DNA of 62,706 nucleotides, filler included, from Hausera hauseri (Eukaryota): NCBI GenBank assembly GCA_046269625.1. It is 12 parts of 12 records of this genome, joined end to end, with 100 filler letters (N's around TTAATTAATTAA, not from the genome) between each part and the next. Parts side by side here need not be neighbours in the genome. Positions count along the whole stretch, not along the records: positions 8,021 to 11,962 come from JBJURY010870404.1; 11 more parts are not named here. One strand, written 5' to 3'. Numbering within the stretch: position 1 is the stretch's first letter; each line of letters opens with the position of its first letter. The position numbers and the translations under genes are program-made. Below the pieces are notes generated by a model. That model saw only the letters and a list, made by a program, of their open reading frames with translations. It did no database searches and was not told the origin of the DNA. Of this stretch, positions 7,921 to 55,180 are shown in pieces.

Positions 7921-8020
7921 NNNNNNNNNNNNNNNNNNNNNNNNNNNNNNNNNNNNNNNNNNNNTTAATTAATTAANNNNNNNNNNNNNNNNNNNNNNNN
8001 NNNNNNNNNNNNNNNNNNNN
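7921..8020. other. Artificial contig linker N44-TTAATTAATTAA-N44. Identical linkers at 11963-12062, 16407-16506, 21467-21566, 28627-28726, 33852-33951, 38481-38580, 42557-42656, 46931-47030, 52851-52950 and 57176-57275
   Basis: Eleven identical 100-bp N spacers containing a 12-mer with stops in all six frames, a pseudomolecule concatenation convention. Confidence 0.98.
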
Positions 8021-11000
8021 AAAAATTTCCCAAAACCTACTACTGTCAATGAGTTACGCAGATTTTTAGGACTGGCAAATTATTATTGAAGTTTTATAAA
8101 GAATTTTAGTAAAATAGCCAAACCACTCTATGAATTATTACGTGAATATTTAGAAAAGGTAATATGGACAAGTGAGTGTAAAAAGGCCTTCGAAGACCCG
8201 AAAGAAAGATTATTAAATGCTTCATCCTGATTTATCTAGATATGACTAAACCATTTATATTGGCAAAGGACGCAAGCGATTATGGGGTAGGAGCGGTATT
8301 ATCACAAAAAGGCGAAGATGGCAAGAAACATCCAGTTGCTTATGCGTCGAGAAAACTAAATAAACAACAAAAGAAATATGCCGTTATTGAAAAGGAATTA
8401 TTAGCGGTGACATACTCTTTAGAAGTGTTCTCACCGTATATTAGTGAGAATAAACCATTGATAATATACCCAGACCATCGACCACTGCAATGGCTAAAGA
8501 AGAATGAGAACCTCAGTAGTAGGTTACTACGGTGGGCCTTAAAACTCCAACCTTATACGTTAGATTTTCAACACAAACCCTGCACACAAAATGCAAATGC
8601 GGATTATTTATCAAGAATGCCGAAGAAAGAGTTAGAAAAGAAAGAGGTGATTGCAGCGGTGTGGAGCATGGATGGATCCGCAGAAAGAATAAAAGATAAT
8701 CAAGAAGAAGATGAAGAAATAAAAGCTATTAGAAATTATATACAAAATAAAATCATATCCAAGGATAAAGAATTGGCTCGTCATCTAACTAGATTTAGCG
8801 ATACGTACGAAGAAAAAGATGGATTCTTATACTATATTCATCAAAATGGACCTGTACTAGTAATTCCAAAGAAGAATAGAGCGGTACTGCTAACCCAATA
8901 TCATAATGGATTACCAGAGTACATCAGTCAATGAGAAAAGCGATAAATAAATTAAAAAGGAAATACTTCTGGACTACAATAGCAAAGGATGTCAAAGATT
9001 GGTGTGACAGCTGCAAACTGTGTGCGAAACGAAAGAATACGGGATCCAAATTTAAAGCGCCCCTGAAAATATTGGACAATCCACCTGCCCCGTTTGAATT
9101 TACAGCAATAGATGTAACAGGACCTCTACCACTAACAAGAAACGGAAACAAATACATCCTGGTGTTTATAGATTATTTTACCTGATGGGTTGTTGCACTG
9201 CCTATGCCAGATATGAAAGCTGAAACGATAGCCGAAAAAGTTGTTGAAAACATCATATTTAATTGTAAAGCTCCTCGAATCGTGTTAACAGACCAAGCAT
9301 CCAATCTAACCGGTAATGCAAAGAAATCAGTATACGATATTATGAAGATATTAAAGTTGAGTCCAACTCCGTTTCATCAGGAAAACAACGGAATGGTTGA
9401 AAGGTATATAGGAGATTTGAATGAAAAGCTACAAACAGTAGTTAATGAAAGACAAGACGATTGGGATGAGTATATTAACGCATGTGTTTTTGTGACTCGA
9501 ACGTCTGTGCACTAAGCTACCAAAGAGACACCCTTTTATATGATGTACTTAAGAGATGCCAGATTACCCATTGATTTGGATTTCAATGTACTGCCTATAT
9601 CTCAGTTAATGGAAGTAGAGGAATATAAGCAGCTAATGCAGGAACGTCTCCAATTAGGGTATACCATAAGAAAAGATAAACAGAAGGAATATAAAATGAA
9701 ACACAAAAAGTATTATGACGAAAAGACAAAGAAGCCGGTAATCAAAGTGGGAGATAAAATGATGCTATACATGCCGTTAAATAAGAAAGGCAAGACATCC
9801 AAGCTGGACAGATCTTATAATGGACCGTATGAAGTAGAAAAAGTGGATTTGCCTAACATATGTTTAAAGAAGAATAATACTAGAATTAAAGTACATGTCA
9901 ACAGGTGTAAACCTGCGCCGAAGGAGAGCGGATTAAGAAACGACGAACAGGAACTAGTACGGGCCATCGAATTTAAAAAGGGAAGTAATAAAACTCAGAA
10001 TTATGACGTATTCAAATACCTATGTCTATTTGTTTTTATAGGGACACCAGGCCTGTTAGCTCAAACAACAAAACCACTGGATCCATGGATGAGAACATTT
10101 CCTTCAAATGAAACGTTAGAAAATAGCCTGATGAAAAGTGTTTATCATGAAATAACCTATACCAGGAAAGTCCAAAAAGGTATAAGCTTTATGATATTCG
10201 AAAGGTTACCCAACCAGTATATGATAGTAACTCAGATGATTACGAACAAAGCCCGAAACAACAAAAGTATGATTGCGGCCTTACTTATTGGAGGAACACG
10301 ACAGAATGCATAGTAGATGACCGCGGCAATTATCTCATATACTATACTCTCATCAAAAGACATAAGAACCATTATAAATGGCAATATACTAAGTGCCGAG
10401 GTATCATACAGGTTCCTAGTAGAAGGACAATGAATGTAACCAAATTAGATAAGATAATATTAACTCAACTCACTGTTAGGCCGATAGCATTTAAAGGTGG
10501 ACGAAGCTGCATCGAAATTAGAACAATGATAAAACTGGAAGAAAATAGAGTAATAAGTATAAGACTTACAGATGTAGAAAAGAAACAACAGATGACAACA
10601 AAATGCCAGTTAACTGACAAGCATCTCCAAGTCTGCTGTAATGCTTTACGGGGAAGAACCTATGACTTACAATGTAGGTTACTACAAAAGAATCGAGAGA
10701 GCGTTAAAAGTCAAACTTACCAAGGGCCTAGAACATATGTTCCACTCAAAAGTGTCATTGAATATGACGATGACCAGCAGCCCCATGTCACGACATCTCT
10801 TGTAAATTCTACGCTATCTAATAAAATAAATACAAACGTCGGAGAAATGACCGTTCTTATTCGGCCTCATGACTCGTCCTATTGTTACAAGCATTCCGTC
10901 TTAGAAAATGTCACAATATCTTCCACGCTGACTTCTTTAATCATAGCCACCCAACCTGAGTTAAATTTTTATAAAATTAAACTCACTTGTAAACTAGGTC

Positions 11001-11962
11001 AAAAGATAATAGCAAAAGGCACAATTACACCAGACGACACCGTAGTGCCGTGTGCCGACTTAAATCCAAATATGAAATATACGGTTACACTGCAACTATA
11101 TGGCGACGATAATACCATAATTTCTATTAAGTTACCGACAGCCTCAACGGAAAGCAAAATAAAGCAGGCAGTAGAAAATAAAAAGGTGAGTCTAAGTAAA
11201 AGTCCACCACTACCGAAAACGAGTTACACCCATTCCCGAATAGAACTGATCATAATTAGCACTGTATGTCCCATAATTTTCTTAATCACGTTAGCGTTTA
11301 TAATAAAACTAATTGTTTGTATAAGAAAACGTCGCAGACCAAACTGGGTTAGAATAGACATGCGACGCATACCAAATATTTTGGATACTGATAATCCAAG
11401 TTGACGATGGCTTCAGCAGATTGTTGTCGACAAAATCCGAGAAATTAAGATAACTGAATATTATTCATTTACCGTGAAAAATAATAAGTTTAAAATGACA
11501 ACGATTACCAAACCGAAATATATGATAACCGTTGTATTATATTTAAGATTTTGTGATATGGATATGACATTGATTTTTACAGCAATGGATATTCAGGCCG
11601 CGCAGCGCAGCACGAATTGGTACGAGAACGCCAAAAACCACCTGATAAATGCAAACTCTTGTAATCAATACTACATCCGAGTCAACGAAAATACTTACAG
11701 TCTCAATTATCCAATGATTCACCAAATACCCAATAATCTCAAAGGGTATTCAATGGGGAATCGATCATTGGCGTTAGTCCACATAACAAAGGCTACCTCA
11801 TTTCTTTCCGGATAAATTTCACAGTATTAATATTTATGACATCATCGGCAAATTCCAAATAAAAATAAAGGACATTAAAACAAATCAGCAAGGGGAATTA
11901 ATCAACTTGTATCCAAACCACGGAATGGCACTCCAATTCGAGGTAATCAAAAGAAATATTCT
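8021..11962 (+). mobile_element. Ty3/Gypsy element (family B): RT connection, RNase H and integrase followed by membrane-protein ORFs
   Basis: RNase H DASDYGVGAVLSQ..PVAYASRKL..EKELLA..DHRPLQWL..NADYLSR; integrase zinc finger (CDSCKLC) and core AIDVTGPLP..TDQ..NGMVER; GPY motif. Confidence 0.95.
10005..11404 (+). pseudogene. Env-position type I membrane protein: signal-like peptide, Cys-containing ectodomain with FN3-like module, TM helix, basic cytoplasmic tail
   Basis: VFKYLCLFVFIGTPGLLAQ lies in the integrase frame; the frame of ORF 10430 is open back to 10151; NVTISSTLTSLII..YKIKLTC..DLNPNMKYTVTLQLY fits FN3 LxPxTxYxVxV; TM IELIIISTVCPIIFLITLAFIIKLIVCI followed by RKRRR. Confidence 0.7.
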
Positions 11963-12099
11963 NNNNNNNNNNNNNNNNNNNNNNNNNNNNNNNNNNNNNN
12001 NNNNNNTTAATTAATTAANNNNNNNNNNNNNNNNNNNNNNNNNNNNNNNNNNNNNNNNNNNNACTATTGAGGATGCTGCACTGACCCAATGGATTTTAA

Positions 12100-13044: not shown

Positions 13045-13587
13045 CTAGTATTTATTTGTTATTTCACTCATCGCAGAAATAAGCTGTTGTACTATTCTGA
13101 GCAAATCAGATACATGTTGAGTCATATATTGTAGGTGTTTCTTTTCTTCATTTTCTGAGTAGGGCTGGATTAATGGGTTCAATTCAAATTTGATTGTTAA
13201 GGTATCACTGGACAAAATTGAATCCAATTTTCTTAGTGGATAAAATGTTGGAAAACCAATTGCACTGTTGCGTCCACTTTCGGGTTTCATGTAACATACA
13301 TAACTGCTATCTGTTTGTATTCTGTCTGAGCATATGACAGCACCTTGTTCATCCAATAGAGACATTTTTATTATTCCACGAAAAGGCCATTCCAACGTTT
13401 CATCATCTTCACCTTTCACCAAAGCAAAAAATACCGATAAATGTGTATATCTGCCAACACCGTCACCTTCCGGATAGACTCTAATACAGAATTGGTACCC
13501 ACTGATACTGAAAGTATCACTGATAATGACCATATTGTCTTTGCTTTTTTCGTTGAAGTTTGTTAATTTCCAAATATAGGTATTCAT
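13045..13587 (-). CDS. Intronless stand-alone TRAF-type MATH domain protein (180 aa)
   Basis: YIWKLTNF..SDTF..GYQFCIRVYPEGDG..THLSVFFALVKGEDDETLEWPF..IKMSLLD..GFPTF..DTLTIK; AATAAA at 13023-13028 on the minus strand. Confidence 0.88.
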   Translation of the reverse strand: MNTYIWKLTNFNEKSKDNMVIISDTFSISGYQFCIRVYPEGDGVGRYTHLSVFFALVKGEDDETLEWPFRGIIKMSLLDEQGAVICSDRIQTDSSYVCYMKPESGRNSAIGFPTFYPLRKLDSILSSDTLTIKFELNPLIQPYSENEEKKHLQYMTQHVSDLLRIVQQLISAMSEITNKY

Positions 13588-13617
13588 AATTAATGAAAAC
13601 AGGATATATGTACATGC

Positions 13618-28726: not shown

Positions 28727-31700
28727 TCAGAATTATAAACAGTTTTTAACTGATTTTTCAGTATTACCCGATTTATAAATTAATATAAATTAAACACCTT
28801 TTCCAAAAATTCTAAAAACATATGCCAAATTATTACTAAATTCCTTCATTATATTTGTACAAATTCCTAAGTTTGTACAATAATGAGAAAAAGCCATAAA
28901 ATAATAATTATTTACGATATGCTGTTTATATCAGTATTTACAAATTTTAGACGTCTTTACAACATTGGACGTCTGTACAACATTTCTCCTCCCTGAGCGG
29001 CATCCTTGGATGTACCCATTGGATCTAGAGAGATGATGCCATTATCTGGTCGTCTAAGGAGATTTATTTGTCGACGTAAACTAATTTCGGCTTCCGTATT
29101 AGGCTGAGTTTCTCAGAAATCCGTTTCTAATTCATAACTGTAATGAGGTCTTATGAGGACTACACGGGTGTAACTATCGTTTGAAAAATATTTCAGTTCA
29201 GTTGCTTCAACCCGACACGCTGGACGTGTAGTTTTGCCGTTGTCTAGAGTTCATTTTCTCAAGCAATCTCGGCAATATTTATGTCGACAATCGTGGTTAT
29301 CTAGAACGACGTATCCTTGACTGAGATTCGCTTCACATACTGGGTATTCGTTCTCTTCTTTATCCCATTCTCATCGTCTAAATCTACTTTTATTATGAGT
29401 TCGATGGGTTCGAATATGATATCATATTTATCTTGGTATAGGTAACCATGAATCCTCTTTTGTTTGCGGTTTAAGGAACTCTTTTTGGGATTACAACCTA
29501 CTGGTACTAATGTCCAATCAGCAATGGTATCTCGATCTAATCCGGGAATTTCACCATCCGTTTGATACTTTTGATATTGTTTCTTTAACAAAGCTTTCAT
29601 TTGCTTGTCCATGATACTGTTAACCTACCGTTTCTTTTTGATTGAAAAACTGGTGTGATATATTTTCCTATTTTAGGGTTTTCCCAAATGTACGTGTTTT
29701 CATATACTTCTCGAGCTAGTGTGGTCTTAACGAAAAACATCGTTTCTTTCATTTTTTGGTGATTATAATATTCTGTGGTTACTAGCATTTTCGGGTAATC
29801 TTTAGTAGTTGCAAAGTGTACTTCTTCGGAATTCCTTTTTCTAAGGATATTTACTTCTGTGAACAGTTGCTGAAATCCGCTTTCTGGGTTCTTGTGTTTG
29901 TATATCGATCTTTTGGGTTTTTCTGGAATTGTCATCTGGTTATTTGCGGATGTAGTTGGGATTTCTCTTGATGTCGCCGAAATTCCGGGTTCCTCGCCGT
30001 TTTATTGGTTCGATCCTATTGTACTTGGGTTGAGCTCGTTTCTTTGTTTTTCTCCCTAAACAAGTAATCATAGAGGGATAATTTTCTTTTAATCGAGGAA
30101 ATTTGTGTTCCAGCCTTCTTCTTGTTTGGTAGAATTTGTGGAACCTTGAATGCCTCAATTGCGGTTTTCTTATTGATTATTAATTCTATTTTCTCAGCTG
30201 ATTTTTCAGTGGGAATTTTGGATTTAACGTGGGTATTATGACTGATGCTGGACATATTGGCACATGGTTGATCGAATTTCCTAATGGTTATCTTTATGTC
30301 ATCTTGTATAGGTTCAACGATTCTTCAAGGAGAATATGAATGGTACTGCTTCCGATACTTTTTTCTTATAGTTTCCAGATCTGACGGGCTTCGTAAATTT
30401 TTTTCTGGATTGCTGGGTGTCCACTCATGGTACCAATTTAAAGCTACACAAATATCGCGCAAGTATTGAGTGCGTTGACTTGCGGTTAACAGTTTGTTAA
30501 TCTTAACATGTTCCTTGTTCATGGTGTCAACCATTAATTTGAAATAGGTATCCATAACTTTCGGCATAGGGTAATTCCTTTCTCGCAATATTCGTTTAGT
30601 TTGTTCGGCGACTACTGGGTGTGTCCCTATCTCATGCATTCCAGCGATGCTTGAGCTGGGTATTTCTATTAATTCAACAATCCTGTAAACTCGATATCCA
30701 GCGAGAATATATCCATATAAACAATATCCTAACTCGGCTAGGACAAGTTTTATGTCTCTGCCTCTCGGGCGCGTTTCTTTGTGAATTCTTCTCGTATCGT
30801 ATTGTTTCACGAACGCGTTTTCTCGGACTAATAATCGTACAATATACTTCCGTTCCGTGGGTTTGTCGAATCGAGACTTCCATAGAAATGTTTTGCGCAT
30901 CATTTCCTTCTCCATAATTGATTGCTATGATTCTTGTATTTCTGGCAGAATTTTAAAGGTGGTAGTTGGATATAGTAATCGTCGTAAGTTACAGTGCTAG
31001 AACTATCTGAACGTATGAGATCTGTCTGAGAATTATTGAAAAAGTTTTTTTCTCGTGTTGTCGTAAATTGTAACGTTTATTGAGTCGTATATCTATCTTA
31101 ACGACTGTTTGTACTGATATGACCTTTTCCTTTAAATTCTTACTGATGTATACCGTAGTCGGCGTAACTTTAGTAACTTTGTTTGGTCCTCTGTCTGTAC
31201 GAATCAGTTTTAACGACGTTCCTTTCTTAGCTACCGGGTAATGTACATAAACCCAGTTTCCTTATTCTAAATCGTGTGGCTTCGCTTTCTTATCATATTG
31301 CTTATTAAACTGTTCTTGATATTCTTGCGATAATTCTTTGGCGATTTCCCAACATTTGTGTAGTCGTGTCTGTAGCACTTCTGCAAAATTTTGTTCTAAA
31401 TCTTCGGGGATTATTGTGTATGGTGTCATTCCTAAATCTGTTAATAACACAGCTTCACGTCCGCACATCATGAAGAACGGTGTAAATCCTGTCGCTGGAT
31501 GTGGTGTAGTATTAATGGCAAATTGAGTTCCTTCTAAAAATTCGTCCCAATCTTTTTGGTCCTTGGTTACTACTGTGGATAATATGCGTATGGCGGTTGC
31601 ATTCATTCGTTCAACCACTCCATTACATTGAGGATGGTGTGCGGTTGTAGTTAACCTATCAATCTCAATTATTTTAATAATTTTCTCAAACTGTTCACTG

Positions 31701-33851
31701 GTGAAGTTTCTTCCTCGATCTGTCAGTATCTGATTTGGGGGTCCATAACGACAAATTATTCTTCTTACTACAGCTTCTGCCAAAGTTTCTGCCTTTTGGT
31801 CAGTCACAGCTACTAACTCGACAAACTGAGTTAGCCTATCAATACAAGTCAAGATATACTTATTATTTTTGTGGGTCGTAGGTAGCGGTCCTACAATGTC
31901 CACTGACATGGCTTGCATAGGTCTGTCTGGTACGGCAATTGGTTTTAGCTCTGCCATGTAGTTCTTCGTCTTTTCTGCTTAGTCGTATATAGTTCACAAG
32001 CACTTACCCCATTCTTTACATAAATGTAGATACTGGGCCAAAAGTATTTATTCAATATTATTTCCAGCATCTTTTTCCATGACATGTGTCCTGCTAAATA
32101 TGACTCATGTTCTGCCACTAAAACGTCGGTGAGTAACCTTGTTTGGATGACGTAATTTCCTTCCTTTTCGTTCATAGTACAAAATGTCTTTATGACCATT
32201 ATCGTTCAAGACACAATATTTGTGTCCATTCCTGTGTAGATGTTTCCTAATCTGTCGTCCTCTTGGCACTGTATCCTTTTTAACAAATTCTATAATCTGC
32301 TGGATAACTTTATCCCTCTTCCGTTCGGTTGAAATTTTCATCGCTTTGTCCATCGTCAAAGCGCGTTGATGGACTATTAATTCTTCAAGCTGAGGTTTCT
32401 TCATTACCGTTATTGCACTTGTCTTAGTTTTTAGTCTTGATAGTGTGTCAGCATTTCCATGTTTGTTTCCCGATTTATACTGAAATTCAATATTATATCT
32501 AGAAATTTCTTCAATCCATCTGTCAAGTCTACATGTCGAATTATTTTCTCGTCCTTTTAAGGTCGTGACGGCTTTGTTATCAGTAACAATTATGATTTTC
32601 TGCCCGTATACATAAACATTAAAATATCGCAGCGCTTCTTTAACGGCTAAAGTTTCTAATTCAATAACGGAATAATTCATTTCGCCTTTCTTCAAGGAAC
32701 GTCCTCCATAAACGATTGGGTGCTCTAAATATTCGTCCTCTCGTTTCGGAGCTAATTCATATCCGATACTTCCTTTATTGGCATCTGTCTTAATTATGAA
32801 TAGTAAATTGAAGTCTGGATATCGTAAAACTGGTTCTCTTGTTAGGGTTTCTTTCATTTCGTTGAAGGCCTTTTATTTTACGTCTGTCCATTCCCATTTA
32901 ATTCCTCTCTTAAGTAGACTATATAAAGGTTCATTAATTTTCGAATTATGTGGCACATACGTGGCGTAATATCGACAAAAACCTATCCAGTGTCTTAACT
33001 CTTTTTGATTTTGCAGTTTAATGTAACCTGATATCTTGTTCAATAATGATTTATTTGGTTTTGTTCCTCCTTCTCCAACTACATGGCCAAAGTAAGATAC
33101 TGCATTTTGAGACAATTTACATTTCTTTGGTTCAATTTTAATTCTGCTTGTTCTAATCGCATTATGGTGTGCTCAATGTACTTTAAGTGTTCCTCTTCTG
33201 TCATCGATGCTATCATTACATTATCTAAATATGAAAAAGCGTGGTCTTGACCCATTAACATTTTATTCATCATTCATGTAAAAATAGCTGGTCCAATGGT
33301 GATACCAAATGGCATTACATTAAATTCATAAACACAATCTTGCTTTTTAAACGCGGTTTTATAGCGGTCTTCATTCTCGATTTCCACTTGCCAATATCCA
33401 GATTGTAAGTCCAGAGTAGTAAACCATTTTTCTCCTGAAAGCCTATTTAAGGCTTCTTTTACTGACGGTAACGGGAAGGAATCCTTCACCAAAAAGTTAT
33501 TTAGTGCCCTGTAATCAATACAAAATCGATGTTTTGTAGTACATTTCTTTTTAACCTTAAGAATTGGCGATTACCAAGATCTATAGGTGGGCCAAATTAT
33601 ATCGACTTTAAGCATTTGTTCGACATCTTTTATTATCTCGGTTCTTAATGAATGTGGCGGAGTATATCAATTTGGCATCTTTTGATCTTTAAGGTCCATT
33701 TCCTCAATTAACCAAGGCTTTTTCTTAAGTGAAATAGTCAATTTTAAAGCTTTCGGTCTGTCGATATTTTCTTCGTATTTAGCAATGATTGATTTATAAC
33801 GGCATAATAATTTATAGAATCGGCAATAAGATTCAGGTGAAAACTTAGTTT
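28727..33851 (-). mobile_element. Ty3/Gypsy element (family C): RT-RH-IN, about 2 kb of extra coding sequence ending in a RING finger, PPT, 3' LTR (28982 to contig end)
   Basis: RT DLQSGYWQV..MPFG..YLDN; RH TDANK..ELETLA..NADTLSR; IN DIVGPLP..TDRGRNF..NGVVER; PPT AGGGAGGAGAAA (28983-28994) abutting TGTTG. Confidence 0.95.
29211..29346 (-). pseudogene. Degenerate C3HC4 RING finger
   Basis: (Y)PVC-x15-CRHKYCRDC-LRK*-TLDNGKTT-(R)PACR; the three deviations TAC, TGA and CGT are each one transition from TGC, TGG and TGT. Confidence 0.8.
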
Positions 33852-34933: not shown

Positions 34934-36421
34934 ATGGCGCAGAAACACGAGGAGCAGAATTGCCACAGTGTGATGCAGAATTATTTTGGATACCAACACA
35001 ATAAAACTCAATACTATGTATGTCCTGTATGTGAGGTAGTGTGTCGGACAGGTTACGAGGAATTTTACAACCAACATAAACAGCTTCTGCATTCGTTCAC
35101 AAAATTGAAGAAAGAAATATTCAACAATAATATGCATATGACAACAAGTGTCCTAAAAGTAAATCAGATGTGCGGTTCCTATGCTTGTTGCACATCCAAA
35201 GCACATAATCCGCAACAATGTCATGAAACGATGTAGCGATATTATGGATACAAATCCAAAATGATCCCATATTATATATATCCGGGATGCAAGACTGTAT
35301 GAGGTGCAGATTACATACAGTTCTATTATGATCACAAACATTATTTGAGTCACTTCTCATTAAAGTCCAAGAAGGCCATCTATAATAAGCAACAAAATAT
35401 TGATGCATCTGCTTCGCAGTATGATGCTTCGCAGTATTTTGCCTCGCATTATGCTGCAGGATCTGGTGCAGTAGCTGCGAAACATCTTAGAGAATTGAAA
35501 CACGCAGCCGCATCATGCGCATCAGGCCAATCAGTCGCATCAGGCCCATCACGCGCAGCGGCTCCAACAAAATGTCAAATACAGCGGCCAGTTGATGCGG
35601 CAGAATTAAAGAGAAAATGCCGCAGATATGTTATTGATGCAACTGGTTAAACAACCATCAAGGAGTTCCTGGAATATACAAAAGAAGAAACAGAGTGAAT
35701 TCTCCAGGACAACATAGCTGAGATCAAGGCCCTTAAAGTTAATATGAAACTGGAGGCCACATACATCAATGTTGATGGCGAGGAGTCCAAAAGGGCCTTC
35801 AAGACCAGAAATAGACCCATTTTTGAACCCACCAATATAGTAGAATGGCAGCATGAAGAGCATGCAAAGCTGATCCGTGAAGCTGAGGAGAGCCAGGATA
35901 AGAAGAGTGGATGGACTATGGCAACCATCAAGAGATTGCTTGTGTATGTGCACGAGCACTCCCACGCAGGGTAGTTCATATATTTAGCTTCCAGAATGGA
36001 TCGCTAAAAAGGAGCATGTGTCAATGTCCATAATAATGACAACATATGTTTCAAGTATGCCATTTTATGTAAACTCGTACGGGATCAAAAACATGTAGCA
36101 AATTGAGTTTGGCTATATAATAATCTGAAGCACAACTATGGCTTCCAATGTATTAAGTTCCCACCATCCATAGATGAAGTAAAGAAGTTCAGTCGAATCA
36201 ACAATATATCCATCAACATCATTGGATTGGATGATAAGGACAAATTCTATCCCCTGCAGATATATGCTACTGAATTGAAAGATTATAGGGATCTGCTCCT
36301 ACTAGGCGATGGAGAAAAGAAACATTATATATTGATCAAGAACTTTCAGCGTTTAGTCAGATCCCAAATTACGAAATGCACAACAAGATTCGAAATATGC
36401 AAACGATGCTTTTCCCTTTTC
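34934..36421 (+). pseudogene. Polinton/Maverick pPolB N-terminal part: zinc-finger-like region, terminal-protein region, vOTU-like protease
   Basis: SGWT..GSSYI..CVNVHNNDNICFKYAIL..KFP..INNISINIIG..DLLLL..HYILIKNFQRL..ICKRCF. Confidence 0.8.
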
Positions 36422-38480
36422 AGTGGATTCCATAGCTCAGGATCTGACTCTTGTCATCCATCCAATCTATGCTTTTCTTGTGCAGTGTTACTGTATGAAT
36501 ATTAAGATCCTTATACTGCATCCTTTGCATCTCTGATATGATATGAGTCTGCTCCTGCAGAACTCTCACATAGTCATTGAAACCAATCTTCTTGGCCAAT
36601 GTAACACTTTGTATGCCCTTGGCTCTCTTTTTGATCTGACTACATATGTCCAGAACATAAATTTTGGACCTGAGAGCTACAAATATCGAGATGATTGCTC
36701 CATTCACCTCGTCTTTGAATTTTCCTAGGACTTTCTTATTGGCAATTGAATAGTTGGGATGATCCTTCGGATAGTCTGAGGTATCCATATGCTCTTCTAA
36801 CTGGGAAAAGTCCTCATAAATATCCTCTGTACAGATCTGATAGATAAAACTATCAGTATCCATATACATCAGCTGCATGGACTTGAACTTGGGGGCCATT
36901 ATGTCGCAATGGAATCTGTTCATTAGGGTTTTTGATAGATCCAATATTGTCATACCCACATATATAGGCTTGTTGAATACCAAGGATGTTTTAAGCATAT
37001 GGATGCTGACCAAGTTCTCAGCATATATGGTGTTTCTGTGGAAGTTGGACTTGGCAATGAGCTTCTCTCCCCGCTTCCACTCAGAGACAAATTCGATGCT
37101 GATCCTGTTGCGGATATTCTCCACGGTCCGAGACCGAGTTGTTGTAAAGTTTGAATTGATCTTTCTCAAAGTCTTTCTTGGCATTAGTCCGCAGCTTGGT
37201 ATTGAAATCTATGTATGACTGTAGCCACATGGATTGGCTAAAATGGAGAGCTTTATAGATCTTAGTAATACAAACCCATGTCTAACTGACTGCTGGAGAT
37301 TGATGTAGTGGACTACATACCTCTCCCTATTACCCAGATAACAGAGCAACTATCTCTGCTTTCCATGGGGCGGAGGTCTGCTCTCGGGGAGGAAAGGCCG
37401 CTGTTGATGCCTTGCGTGGATGGAAACCGGATATTCCATATCCACCTCCAGTATATAGTTCGTATCTCTAGTGGGATCCAGGATTAATATAAGGATGTTT
37501 TCAGGATTCTCGACCCATTTGAAATTATCATACGGCAATGGGGCGCTCATTGCATATCCATATAAGTTGTTGGCATCTAGGTATGATATATATAAGGATT
37601 CCTTGGATGGACCATACTGAGCCATATACTTGTTTTTGGCCTCACTATACCGGTGAATGGCCTGACATATTCCGCCTTTAATGTCTCTCTCGATCATAAG
37701 GATCACGTCGTAATCCTTGATGATCTGCTTACTTATGCCTGTATATCTCACTATATCTGCCCAGCTCTTCTCTGGAGTCGTAAAGAAATGAGCCAGATTC
37801 AAAATATGGATCTTAATTGTAACATCCCTGAAGCTCTCAAAGGCATCTGTCAGAAGCAGCACGTACGTCTTGAGGTATATGTCGCTGTATTCCCCTAATA
37901 TTCGGCATTGGAATGCATTCCAAACATTCTGGGCACGCTGGTAGTCAACATCACTGATATTGCAATCAGAGAGGGTATTGTAAAGTCCTTCTTTTCCAAC
38001 AATGAGGTTTCATTCAGTGTTTCCTATGAAGTTATATAGTCATAGGGAAACGCCTTTCCACTTGACGAGGTCAAAGGTAGTGGGGAAGTACCGCTTCGTC
38101 CCCTTGAGTTCTTTTGCAGGCAGGTTGTTTATTAAACTATACATCTATAAGCTCATGAAGCGGAAGCTGTCTATGAAGCGAAGTCGGATTTTACCAACAT
38201 GTTTAGTGAAAGTGATGTATTTTTCCTCACTATTGGGAATGACGTCAATGTTTTTTTCAATGCTGCCCAGTTCCCGAACAATGAAGTGGGAATCTTAGCC
38301 ACTGAGATTATGGAACACTATAGGCATATATGTACATGTTTTGCAACGCAGATTGTAGTTGTTGCATGCTGCACCTTAATATGTGCCTGTAAAATGGCAA
38401 TGATGCCTTACTTTATTATTATCCTTAATGAATGATTTTGAGTACAAATAACATGTTTTTGCCTTGCACCATTCTTCTTC
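36420..38480 (-). pseudogene. Polinton/Maverick protein-primed DNA polymerase B, C-terminal part (HNH/EndoVII insert, exonuclease, polymerase), inverted relative to its N-terminus
   Basis: KVRHHCHFTG..GAAC..NL, FHNLSG*DSHF, YLDANNLYGYAMS, KPIYVGMTILDLSK, YMDTDS, KKVLGKFKDE, KRAKGI, DDK. Confidence 0.93.
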
Positions 38481-54619: not shown

Positions 54620-55180
54620 ATGCTCATCTACAAAGATCTGATTTCAGGTTTGTTTAATTCATAAGTCTATGAAATATTTAAACTCATCTTTACAGGAGAT
54701 GAATTGTGCTCTGATTCATACCCAAGAAAACTCGTCGATGATATTGTCTACGAATTCGACGGTAAACGTATCTCCGTTTCCAATGGCATTTCCGATGCTG
54801 CCATTGGTGGTAATGCATCAGCTGAAGGTGAAGATGATGAGGAAGTTGCCGATGCCGCTGAAACACACATCAACATTGTCTACTCTCACAAGTTGACCGA
54901 AATGTCATTCGACAAAAAGAGCTACACCAAATATATCAAAGATTACATGAAGACCTTGTTGGAAAAACTGAAGGCCACCAATCCGGAACGGGCTGAATTA
55001 TTCAAGGAAAAGGCTCAGAAATATGTTGTCCGTATTCTGAAGAATTTTGATGAATACCAATTCTACGTTGGTGAATCAATGAACCCGGAAGGCATGGTCG
55101 TTCTCTGCAATTACCGAGAAGATCAAGTTACTCCATATTTCGCCATGTTTAAGGATGGTCTTGAGGAAGAAAAATACTGA
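54620..55180 (+). CDS. TCTP: Translationally controlled tumour protein; exons 54620-54647 and 54696-55180 (170 aa)
   Basis: MLIYKDLISG|DELCSDSY..IGGNASAEG..FDKKSYTKYIKDYMK..FYVGESMNPEGMV..FKDGLEEEKY; 48-nt GT-AG intron after the 28-nt first exon; AATAAA at 55181. Confidence 0.97.

Follow-up and report, generated by a model that had tools for sequence, protein, structure and literature searches.

A predicted membrane glycoprotein with two FN3-like domains in the env position of a Ty3/Gypsy family, seen in a decayed copy from Hausera hauseri

What kind of protein may occupy the env position of a Ty3/Gypsy retroelement? The question is raised by a 3942-base contig (JBJURY010870404.1) of Hausera hauseri (assembly GCA_046269625.1), located at positions 8021-11962 of the 62,706-nucleotide stretch of DNA that was analysed as a whole (hereafter, the window). 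The entire window is made up of short, repeat-rich contigs chained by N-linkers, which lie on either side of this contig too, and the sequences facing each other across 7921-8020 and 11963-12062 are not genomic neighbours. The contig is a decayed copy of a multi-copy Ty3/Gypsy family; its pol is followed, in the env slot, by open frames encoding a transmembrane (TM) helix, and this region is present across the family. On balance, the explanation to be preferred is that the env slot of this family encodes a predicted type I membrane glycoprotein with two FN3-like domains, likely a non-fusogenic attachment or adhesion protein. The features of the contig are the following:

8021-8915, plus strand: Gypsy pol, end of the reverse transcriptase (RT) connection and RNase H (Pfam RT_RNaseH, E-value 7e-38), with a stop near 8087 and frame breaks near 8221 and 8915
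8916-9914, plus strand: integrase (H2C2, core and C-terminal domain; Pfam Integrase_H2C2, E-value 8e-11), with stops at 9183 and 9513
9915-10016, plus strand: in-frame linker past the normal pol end, with no Met ahead of the signal-like peptide
10017-10061, plus strand: predicted signal peptide (from hydropathy), with cleavage likely before Gln at 10062
10062-10440, plus strand: N-terminal part of the ectodomain, beta-rich and Cys-containing, with no Pfam or credible PDB match
about 10460-10750, plus strand: first predicted FN3-like beta-sandwich (weak FN3 matches)
about 10850-11140, plus strand: second, membrane-proximal predicted FN3-like domain (weak FN3 matches)
11240-11338, plus strand: TM helix and basic stop-transfer motif RKRRR (the latter at 11324)
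11339-11404, plus strand: short cytoplasmic tail up to a TGA (11402-11404), either a true end or a decay lesion
11405-11962, plus strand: further coding-like region, with 136 open codons, a frame shift near 11800 and an open frame to the contig end; it exists in other copies too

The contig begins in the RT connection and maintains the RT-RNase H-integrase order of Ty3/Gypsy pol, which, within about 1970 bases, is interrupted three times by an in-frame stop (over 655 codons) and twice by a break of the frame; at the places of the frame breaks, indels are also seen in other copies (1-4 contigs). No long direct repeat was found inside 8021-11962. The nearest relatives of this pol are only 40-50% identical to it (over RNase H), and the similarity to related pols ceases at 9914, a few residues from their C-termini. 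In a phylogenetic tree of 117 sequences that combine RNase H with integrase (430 columns), from which those without one of the two pieces at the length limits had been excluded, the pol falls inside a 59-member clade (support 1.0) that includes the carriers of F-type or gB-type env at loci L001, L002, L003, L020, and L035; the tree does not fix its place inside the clade. Single-protein scans of viral contigs gave no match for integrase (0/8) or RNase H (0/31), and no PF00041 was seen by eye among the precomputed domains of 120 of the 380 pol relatives.

The integrase frame is open from 9516 to 10310, i.e., 132 codons beyond the normal end of pol, and runs into a signal-like peptide, in agreement with the earlier note on this DNA, which was made from the sequence alone. 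A hydrophobicity equal to that of 10017-10061 was reached over 15 residues in 112 of 3000 shuffles. Just before this peptide (9975-9998, plus strand), a run of 11 purines and a putative splice acceptor in phase can be observed, either of which may be due to chance in such an A-rich strand. The earlier note had placed a single frameshift at or after about 10150; one break does precede the second frame, but its site is most likely near 10235-10252, since related contigs align without gaps on both sides (over 10036-10234 and 10253-10478), and it most likely represents a lesion of this copy. Two pieces cease aligning at 10234 and 10241; no indel in other copies backs the break, the detection being thin (1-4 contigs) for the breaks of pol as well. 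With the break there rather than at 10150, the initial 30 or so codons of the second frame would probably be non-coding. A programmed -1 frameshift is not favoured, there being no perfect slippery heptamer (two near ones exist) and no stable structure downstream (z +1.04).

The second frame (10151-11401) is open for 417 codons, a length reached by none of 2000 dinucleotide shuffles (the longest being 194), and it harbors 11 Cys residues ahead of the TM helix, two inside it, and four N-glycosylation sequons; the Cys-containing ectodomain that had been read in this frame is thus found again. The same holds for the helix followed by RKRRR: the hydropathy of about 11240-11323 was matched by 2 of 3000 shuffles, and this region is the sole high-confidence part of the structure model. 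In its overall layout, a signal peptide-ectodomain-TM frame follows pol, the signal peptide being called from hydropathy alone.

As for the ectodomain, four weak and concordant tests, none of them past its formal cut-off, make FN3 folds probable; an FN3 signal exists in the membrane-proximal module recognized earlier, but the modules appear to be two and not one. For the second domain, all of the ten PDB sequence matches are fibronectin FN3 domains or monobodies (best E-value 0.013), and fn3 is the only Pfam match (E-value 0.15-0.18); the only Pfam match of each of the two domains is an FN3 family, with 12.5-13.2 bits against the 25-26 of the gathering score. The best family matches belong to the same FN3 clan in ten cases out of ten (score 0.90), and tandem FN3 proteins occupy the top positions of a separate comparison (E-value about 1e-3). 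In the second domain, the Leu-x-Pro-x3-Tyr motif is aligned in register (DLNPNMKY at 11057), and the strand-B tryptophan is absent at the aligned place in this decayed copy; in the first one, as read from the sequence, Leu and Tyr are present and Pro is absent. The two domains gave no alignment with each other, and no gB likeness was found for the N-terminal part of the ectodomain.

No relative of the 417-codon frame emerged from a word-indexed search (0 of 1850 candidates at E-value <= 0.01, lengths 229-730 only), from phmmer against 1.84 billion representative proteins (0 at E-value <= 0.001), from metagenome contigs (0/33 pattern matches), viral contigs (0/4), and PHROGs, or from the 88 related loci (none at E-value <= 1). 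A comparison with a viral structure library gave a best E-value of 9e-4, with mixed beta-rich proteins and no class I-III fusogen standing out, an absence that excludes nothing.

Is this region carried by the family, or is it peculiar to one copy? The other copies were assessed in one public run, which is possibly the source of the assembly and hence not independent, yet it does show other copies. A total of 7568 contig pieces align on 8021-11962 and 2089 on 9990-11962, with 30 out of 30 bins covered in each; the pieces on 9990-11962 are mostly 80-95% alike, 1685 of the 2089 being under 95%. Variant sites in the membrane-proximal FN3-like domain and in the TM helix are each represented by 16-32 distinct contigs, and one site just upstream by nine. 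The stretch from the integrase end to the signal peptide is apparently tiled, with 51 contigs at 9931 (up to 95 letters beside it) and pieces over 9990-10101 and 10036-10234. Among the indels listed over 9990-11962, the ten found occur as frame-keeping pairs, and the A-richness of the plus strand is 0.384 in the 3' region versus 0.395 in pol. Since many diverged pieces cover the 3' region and overlaps appear to link it to pol, the region belongs to a diverged multi-copy family, and host DNA is unlikely to have entered a single copy by chance. The signal peptide-FN3-TM protein in env position thus withstands the comparison, and neither of the two outcomes that the earlier note had named beforehand as contrary to it was observed: an FN3 signal is present, and other copies have the region. 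In 10317-11401, 10 of 22 differences are synonymous versus 5.7 expected (P 0.03), with zero stops (40 of 650 variants), the same tally in pol being 2/30; little weight is given to it because the choice of variants shapes the result. One contig of run X1 joins 9878 to 11723, skipping the FN3-TM region (26 letters on the short side), and might be an internally deleted copy, weakly supported as such. No RNA dataset containing the stretch was listed.

FN3 domains are ligand binders and not membrane-fusion folds, so that attachment or cell docking is the simplest role for this protein. According to the proposed mechanism, the signal peptide would send the product into the endoplasmic reticulum, by way of either a pol read-through product or a spliced subgenomic RNA, the latter of which would also provide the missing start codon. 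Once the signal peptide has been cleaved off, the ectodomain, glycosylated and made up of the two FN3 domains and an unassigned one, would be displayed on the producer cell or on the particle, anchored by the TM helix and RKRRR; its binding partner would sit on germline cells or on neighbouring ones, and the transfer of capsids would be favoured in this way, with fusion or uptake coming from another source. As for the origin of the FN3 modules, an ancient capture is likely, either a cellular receptor or another virus being the donor. A bolder form of this proposal, to be taken as tentative, is that a third kind of Gypsy env exists, in which a lineage swapped or supplemented its fusogen with a captured tandem FN3 acting as an attachment protein, borne on an in-frame extension of integrase and targeting germline or neighbouring cells.

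Might the fusogen lie further downstream? The FN3-TM protein would then be the attachment half of a two-component envelope (a polyprotein or a gene pair), with the fusogen in 11405-11962 or past the contig end. After the TGA, the same frame is indeed open for 136 codons (11405-11812), which only 1 of 2000 shuffles of the tail attains; three decay stops in the 655 codons of pol make one more plausible, other copies cover the downstream region, and fusogens are present in the loci of related pols: 7 of the 88 related loci carry an env open reading frame (ORF), six F-type and one gB-type, downstream of pol in those examined. The resumption of the frame reported earlier is therefore observed, but not the start of an ORF at 11474, since this codon is GTG and the next ATG (11495) has another letter in most of the aligned depth, so that neither is supported; the claimed further shift is found as well, the last frame staying open for 55 codons, from 11796 up to where the contig ends (chance about 0.02). 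No variant affects the TGA among 40 of the 650 variants, and the three decay stops of pol are likewise without one among 40 of 1192.

Against this arrangement, which is judged unlikely, the second hydrophobic stretch reported in the earlier note (11519-11554) does not exceed chance (it is matched by 1065 of 3000 shuffles when 11 residues are taken and by 441 of 3000 when 19 are), so that no second signal or TM segment is recognized after the first anchor, although decay could have weakened such a segment. Just two Cys residues and one sequon occur in about 190 downstream residues. No Pfam match to F (Baculo_F) or gB (Monjiviricetes_fusion) exists in the sequenced part, models that recognize the env of related loci at E-value <= 1e-37; the F and gB profiles built from those loci (on six sequences and on one only, respectively) remained below 0 bits on each piece, whereas the gB element of the window, used as a control, reached an E-value of 9e-8. 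The downstream frame has no match in Pfam, PHROGs, PDB (0), or viral contigs (0/7), and its Atlas score (0.80) is at chance level. An E-value 0.01 match in locus L077 was taken as noise, and neither a likeness between 11796-11960 and a Polinton penton end nor one between the downstream frame and the N-terminus of F received support. A second exported domain, or a fusogen, in the sequenced downstream part is thus not supported.

Around the TGA, a read-through stem-loop 3' of the stop is unsupported (z 0.04), and Rfam gave no match of note. At about 11400-11431, the sequence can fold into a hairpin with 11 pairs, overlapping the stop (z -1.94, 7 of 200 shuffles), and this hairpin might be a marginal candidate for a cis element. 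Many contigs represent the tail and the surroundings of the TGA (11310-11441, plus strand), with 46 at one site and 38 at another, a depth which cannot rank the parts.

It is also rather improbable that the protein is a host-modulating cargo, i.e., a captured cytokine-receptor-like or immune-receptor-like decoy altering host signalling or defence without any role in entry. FN3-type decoy receptors are known from large DNA viruses, and the tandem FN3, extra Cys pairs, TM helix, and short tail resemble cytokine receptor chains, which make up many of the matches in the FN3 comparisons; moreover, non-envelope third ORFs are described for rotifer LTR (long terminal repeat) elements in the accessible part of PMC5408684. 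However, the position is exactly the env slot, the topology is env-like, and no sequence similarity to cellular receptors exists among the 1.84 billion proteins searched. Finally, a passenger or mosaic, with a host gene fragment or another repeat joined to pol and amplified without selection, or a contig fusing two repeats, would agree with the lack of a long piece spanning the stretch, the single run, and the missing homologue elsewhere, but it is highly improbable in view of 417 intronless codons open across copies 5-20% apart, a base bias as in pol, the in-frame continuation from integrase, and the overlapping pieces across the junction.

Other elements can be recognized in the window and in the related loci. 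A retroelement contig at 16507-21466 (plus strand) carries a CCHC zinc knuckle (E-value 7e-8), then long unassigned frames that total about 1100 codons (no Pfam family exceeded the cut-off in the one that was scanned); a hydrophobic stretch in frame comes next, and after it a fusogen of gB type (PF24664, E-value 5e-7, above the cut-off). This order looks like gag-X-env, an arrangement that the accessible part of PMC13524379 describes from some phyla of invertebrates; here a long insert separates gag from env. A second Gypsy pol (29597-32872, minus strand) is 33-43% identical to that of 8021-11962, and the frames following it (30325-30924 and 29597-30001) have neither a Pfam match nor similarity to the FN3 frame. 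A frame at 13045-13617 (minus strand) encodes a TRAF-type MATH domain (E-value 3e-29); both this frame and the gB-type element point to an invertebrate animal as the host. The frame at 54665-55180 (minus strand), with no intron break in the listed part, is presumably TCTP-like, and the fragments at 36107-38009 resemble what we take to be a Polinton-type DNA polymerase B. Among the related loci, L064 (5748-12101) has a Gypsy pol whose RNase H and integrase are separated by a PHD finger and a Dam-type adenine methyltransferase (E-value 2e-8), and long frames without a Pfam match lie downstream of env or pol in L001 (7266-8684) and L082 (6755-8137).

How does this architecture compare with known systems? 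In the accessible part of the survey of Chary and Hayashi (PMC13524379), invertebrate Gypsy env genes are classed as F or gB fusogens; a surface protein of FN3 type would escape that survey because it was baited with such env sequences, and the words fibronectin, FN3, and immunoglobulin are absent from its main text. The same source states that the entry mechanism of the elements with gB only is unknown, since herpesviruses require separate attachment proteins. A term search of the accessible part of PMC8556966 gave no match, and the open literature yielded no LTR retrotransposon reported to encode an FN3 protein (subscription journals, Repbase, GyDB, and supplements lay outside the search). 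The architecture is real, family-borne, and apparently undescribed, with a probable fold and an inferred function, as it emerges from a single run and a single copy that is decayed and truncated. If true, the presence of an FN3-TM protein in the env slot throughout a family would imply that a fold of cellular adhesion proteins can be recruited by retroelements, and the protein would be a candidate for receptor binding or cell-to-cell docking separate from fusion; if cargo only, it would still represent an uncommon capture of a gene, whose frame has stayed open in the diverged copies of a family.

The errantiviruses with F or gB env (PMC13524379, accessible part) are alike in the RT-RNase H-integrase order and in the signal peptide-ectodomain-TM frame directly after pol, and the pol of this contig groups with F and gB carriers; in contrast, its ectodomain is FN3-like and neither F nor gB, its signal peptide lies in the integrase frame, and its only RxxR-type motif sits after the TM helix. 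In insect elements, according to the accessible part of PMC12992720, the spliced env usually has no first exon of its own, and the start is supplied by an upstream exon. Tor env of Oikopleura (PMC4402516) and Vesta ORF3 of rotifers (PMC5408684) are likewise membrane glycoproteins in the env slot of Gypsy-like elements, some of them without similarity to known viral env, but they possess furin sites and fusion-peptide-like or coiled-coil features, and FN3 is not reported in the accessible parts of these papers; the latter also points out that TM and sequon features alone are insufficient for calling an env. The sORF2 of MDG1-group retrotransposons, as presented in the accessible part of PMC11952523, is a TM protein as well, env-independent and proposed to move capsids from soma to germline; it is, however, a short FAST-like fusogen, whereas the ectodomain of the protein described here spans some 390 residues, and its predicted fold is receptor-like. 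Cellular FN3-TM proteins (cytokine receptor chains, Tie2, Neogenin, FNDC5/9, and arthropod Fend) share the predicted tandem FN3, the TM helix, and the basic stop-transfer motif, but no homology at the sequence level, and the gene of the window is intronless inside a retroelement. In its manner of working, this protein would resemble an env-slot surface protein, yet one outside the F and gB env classes.
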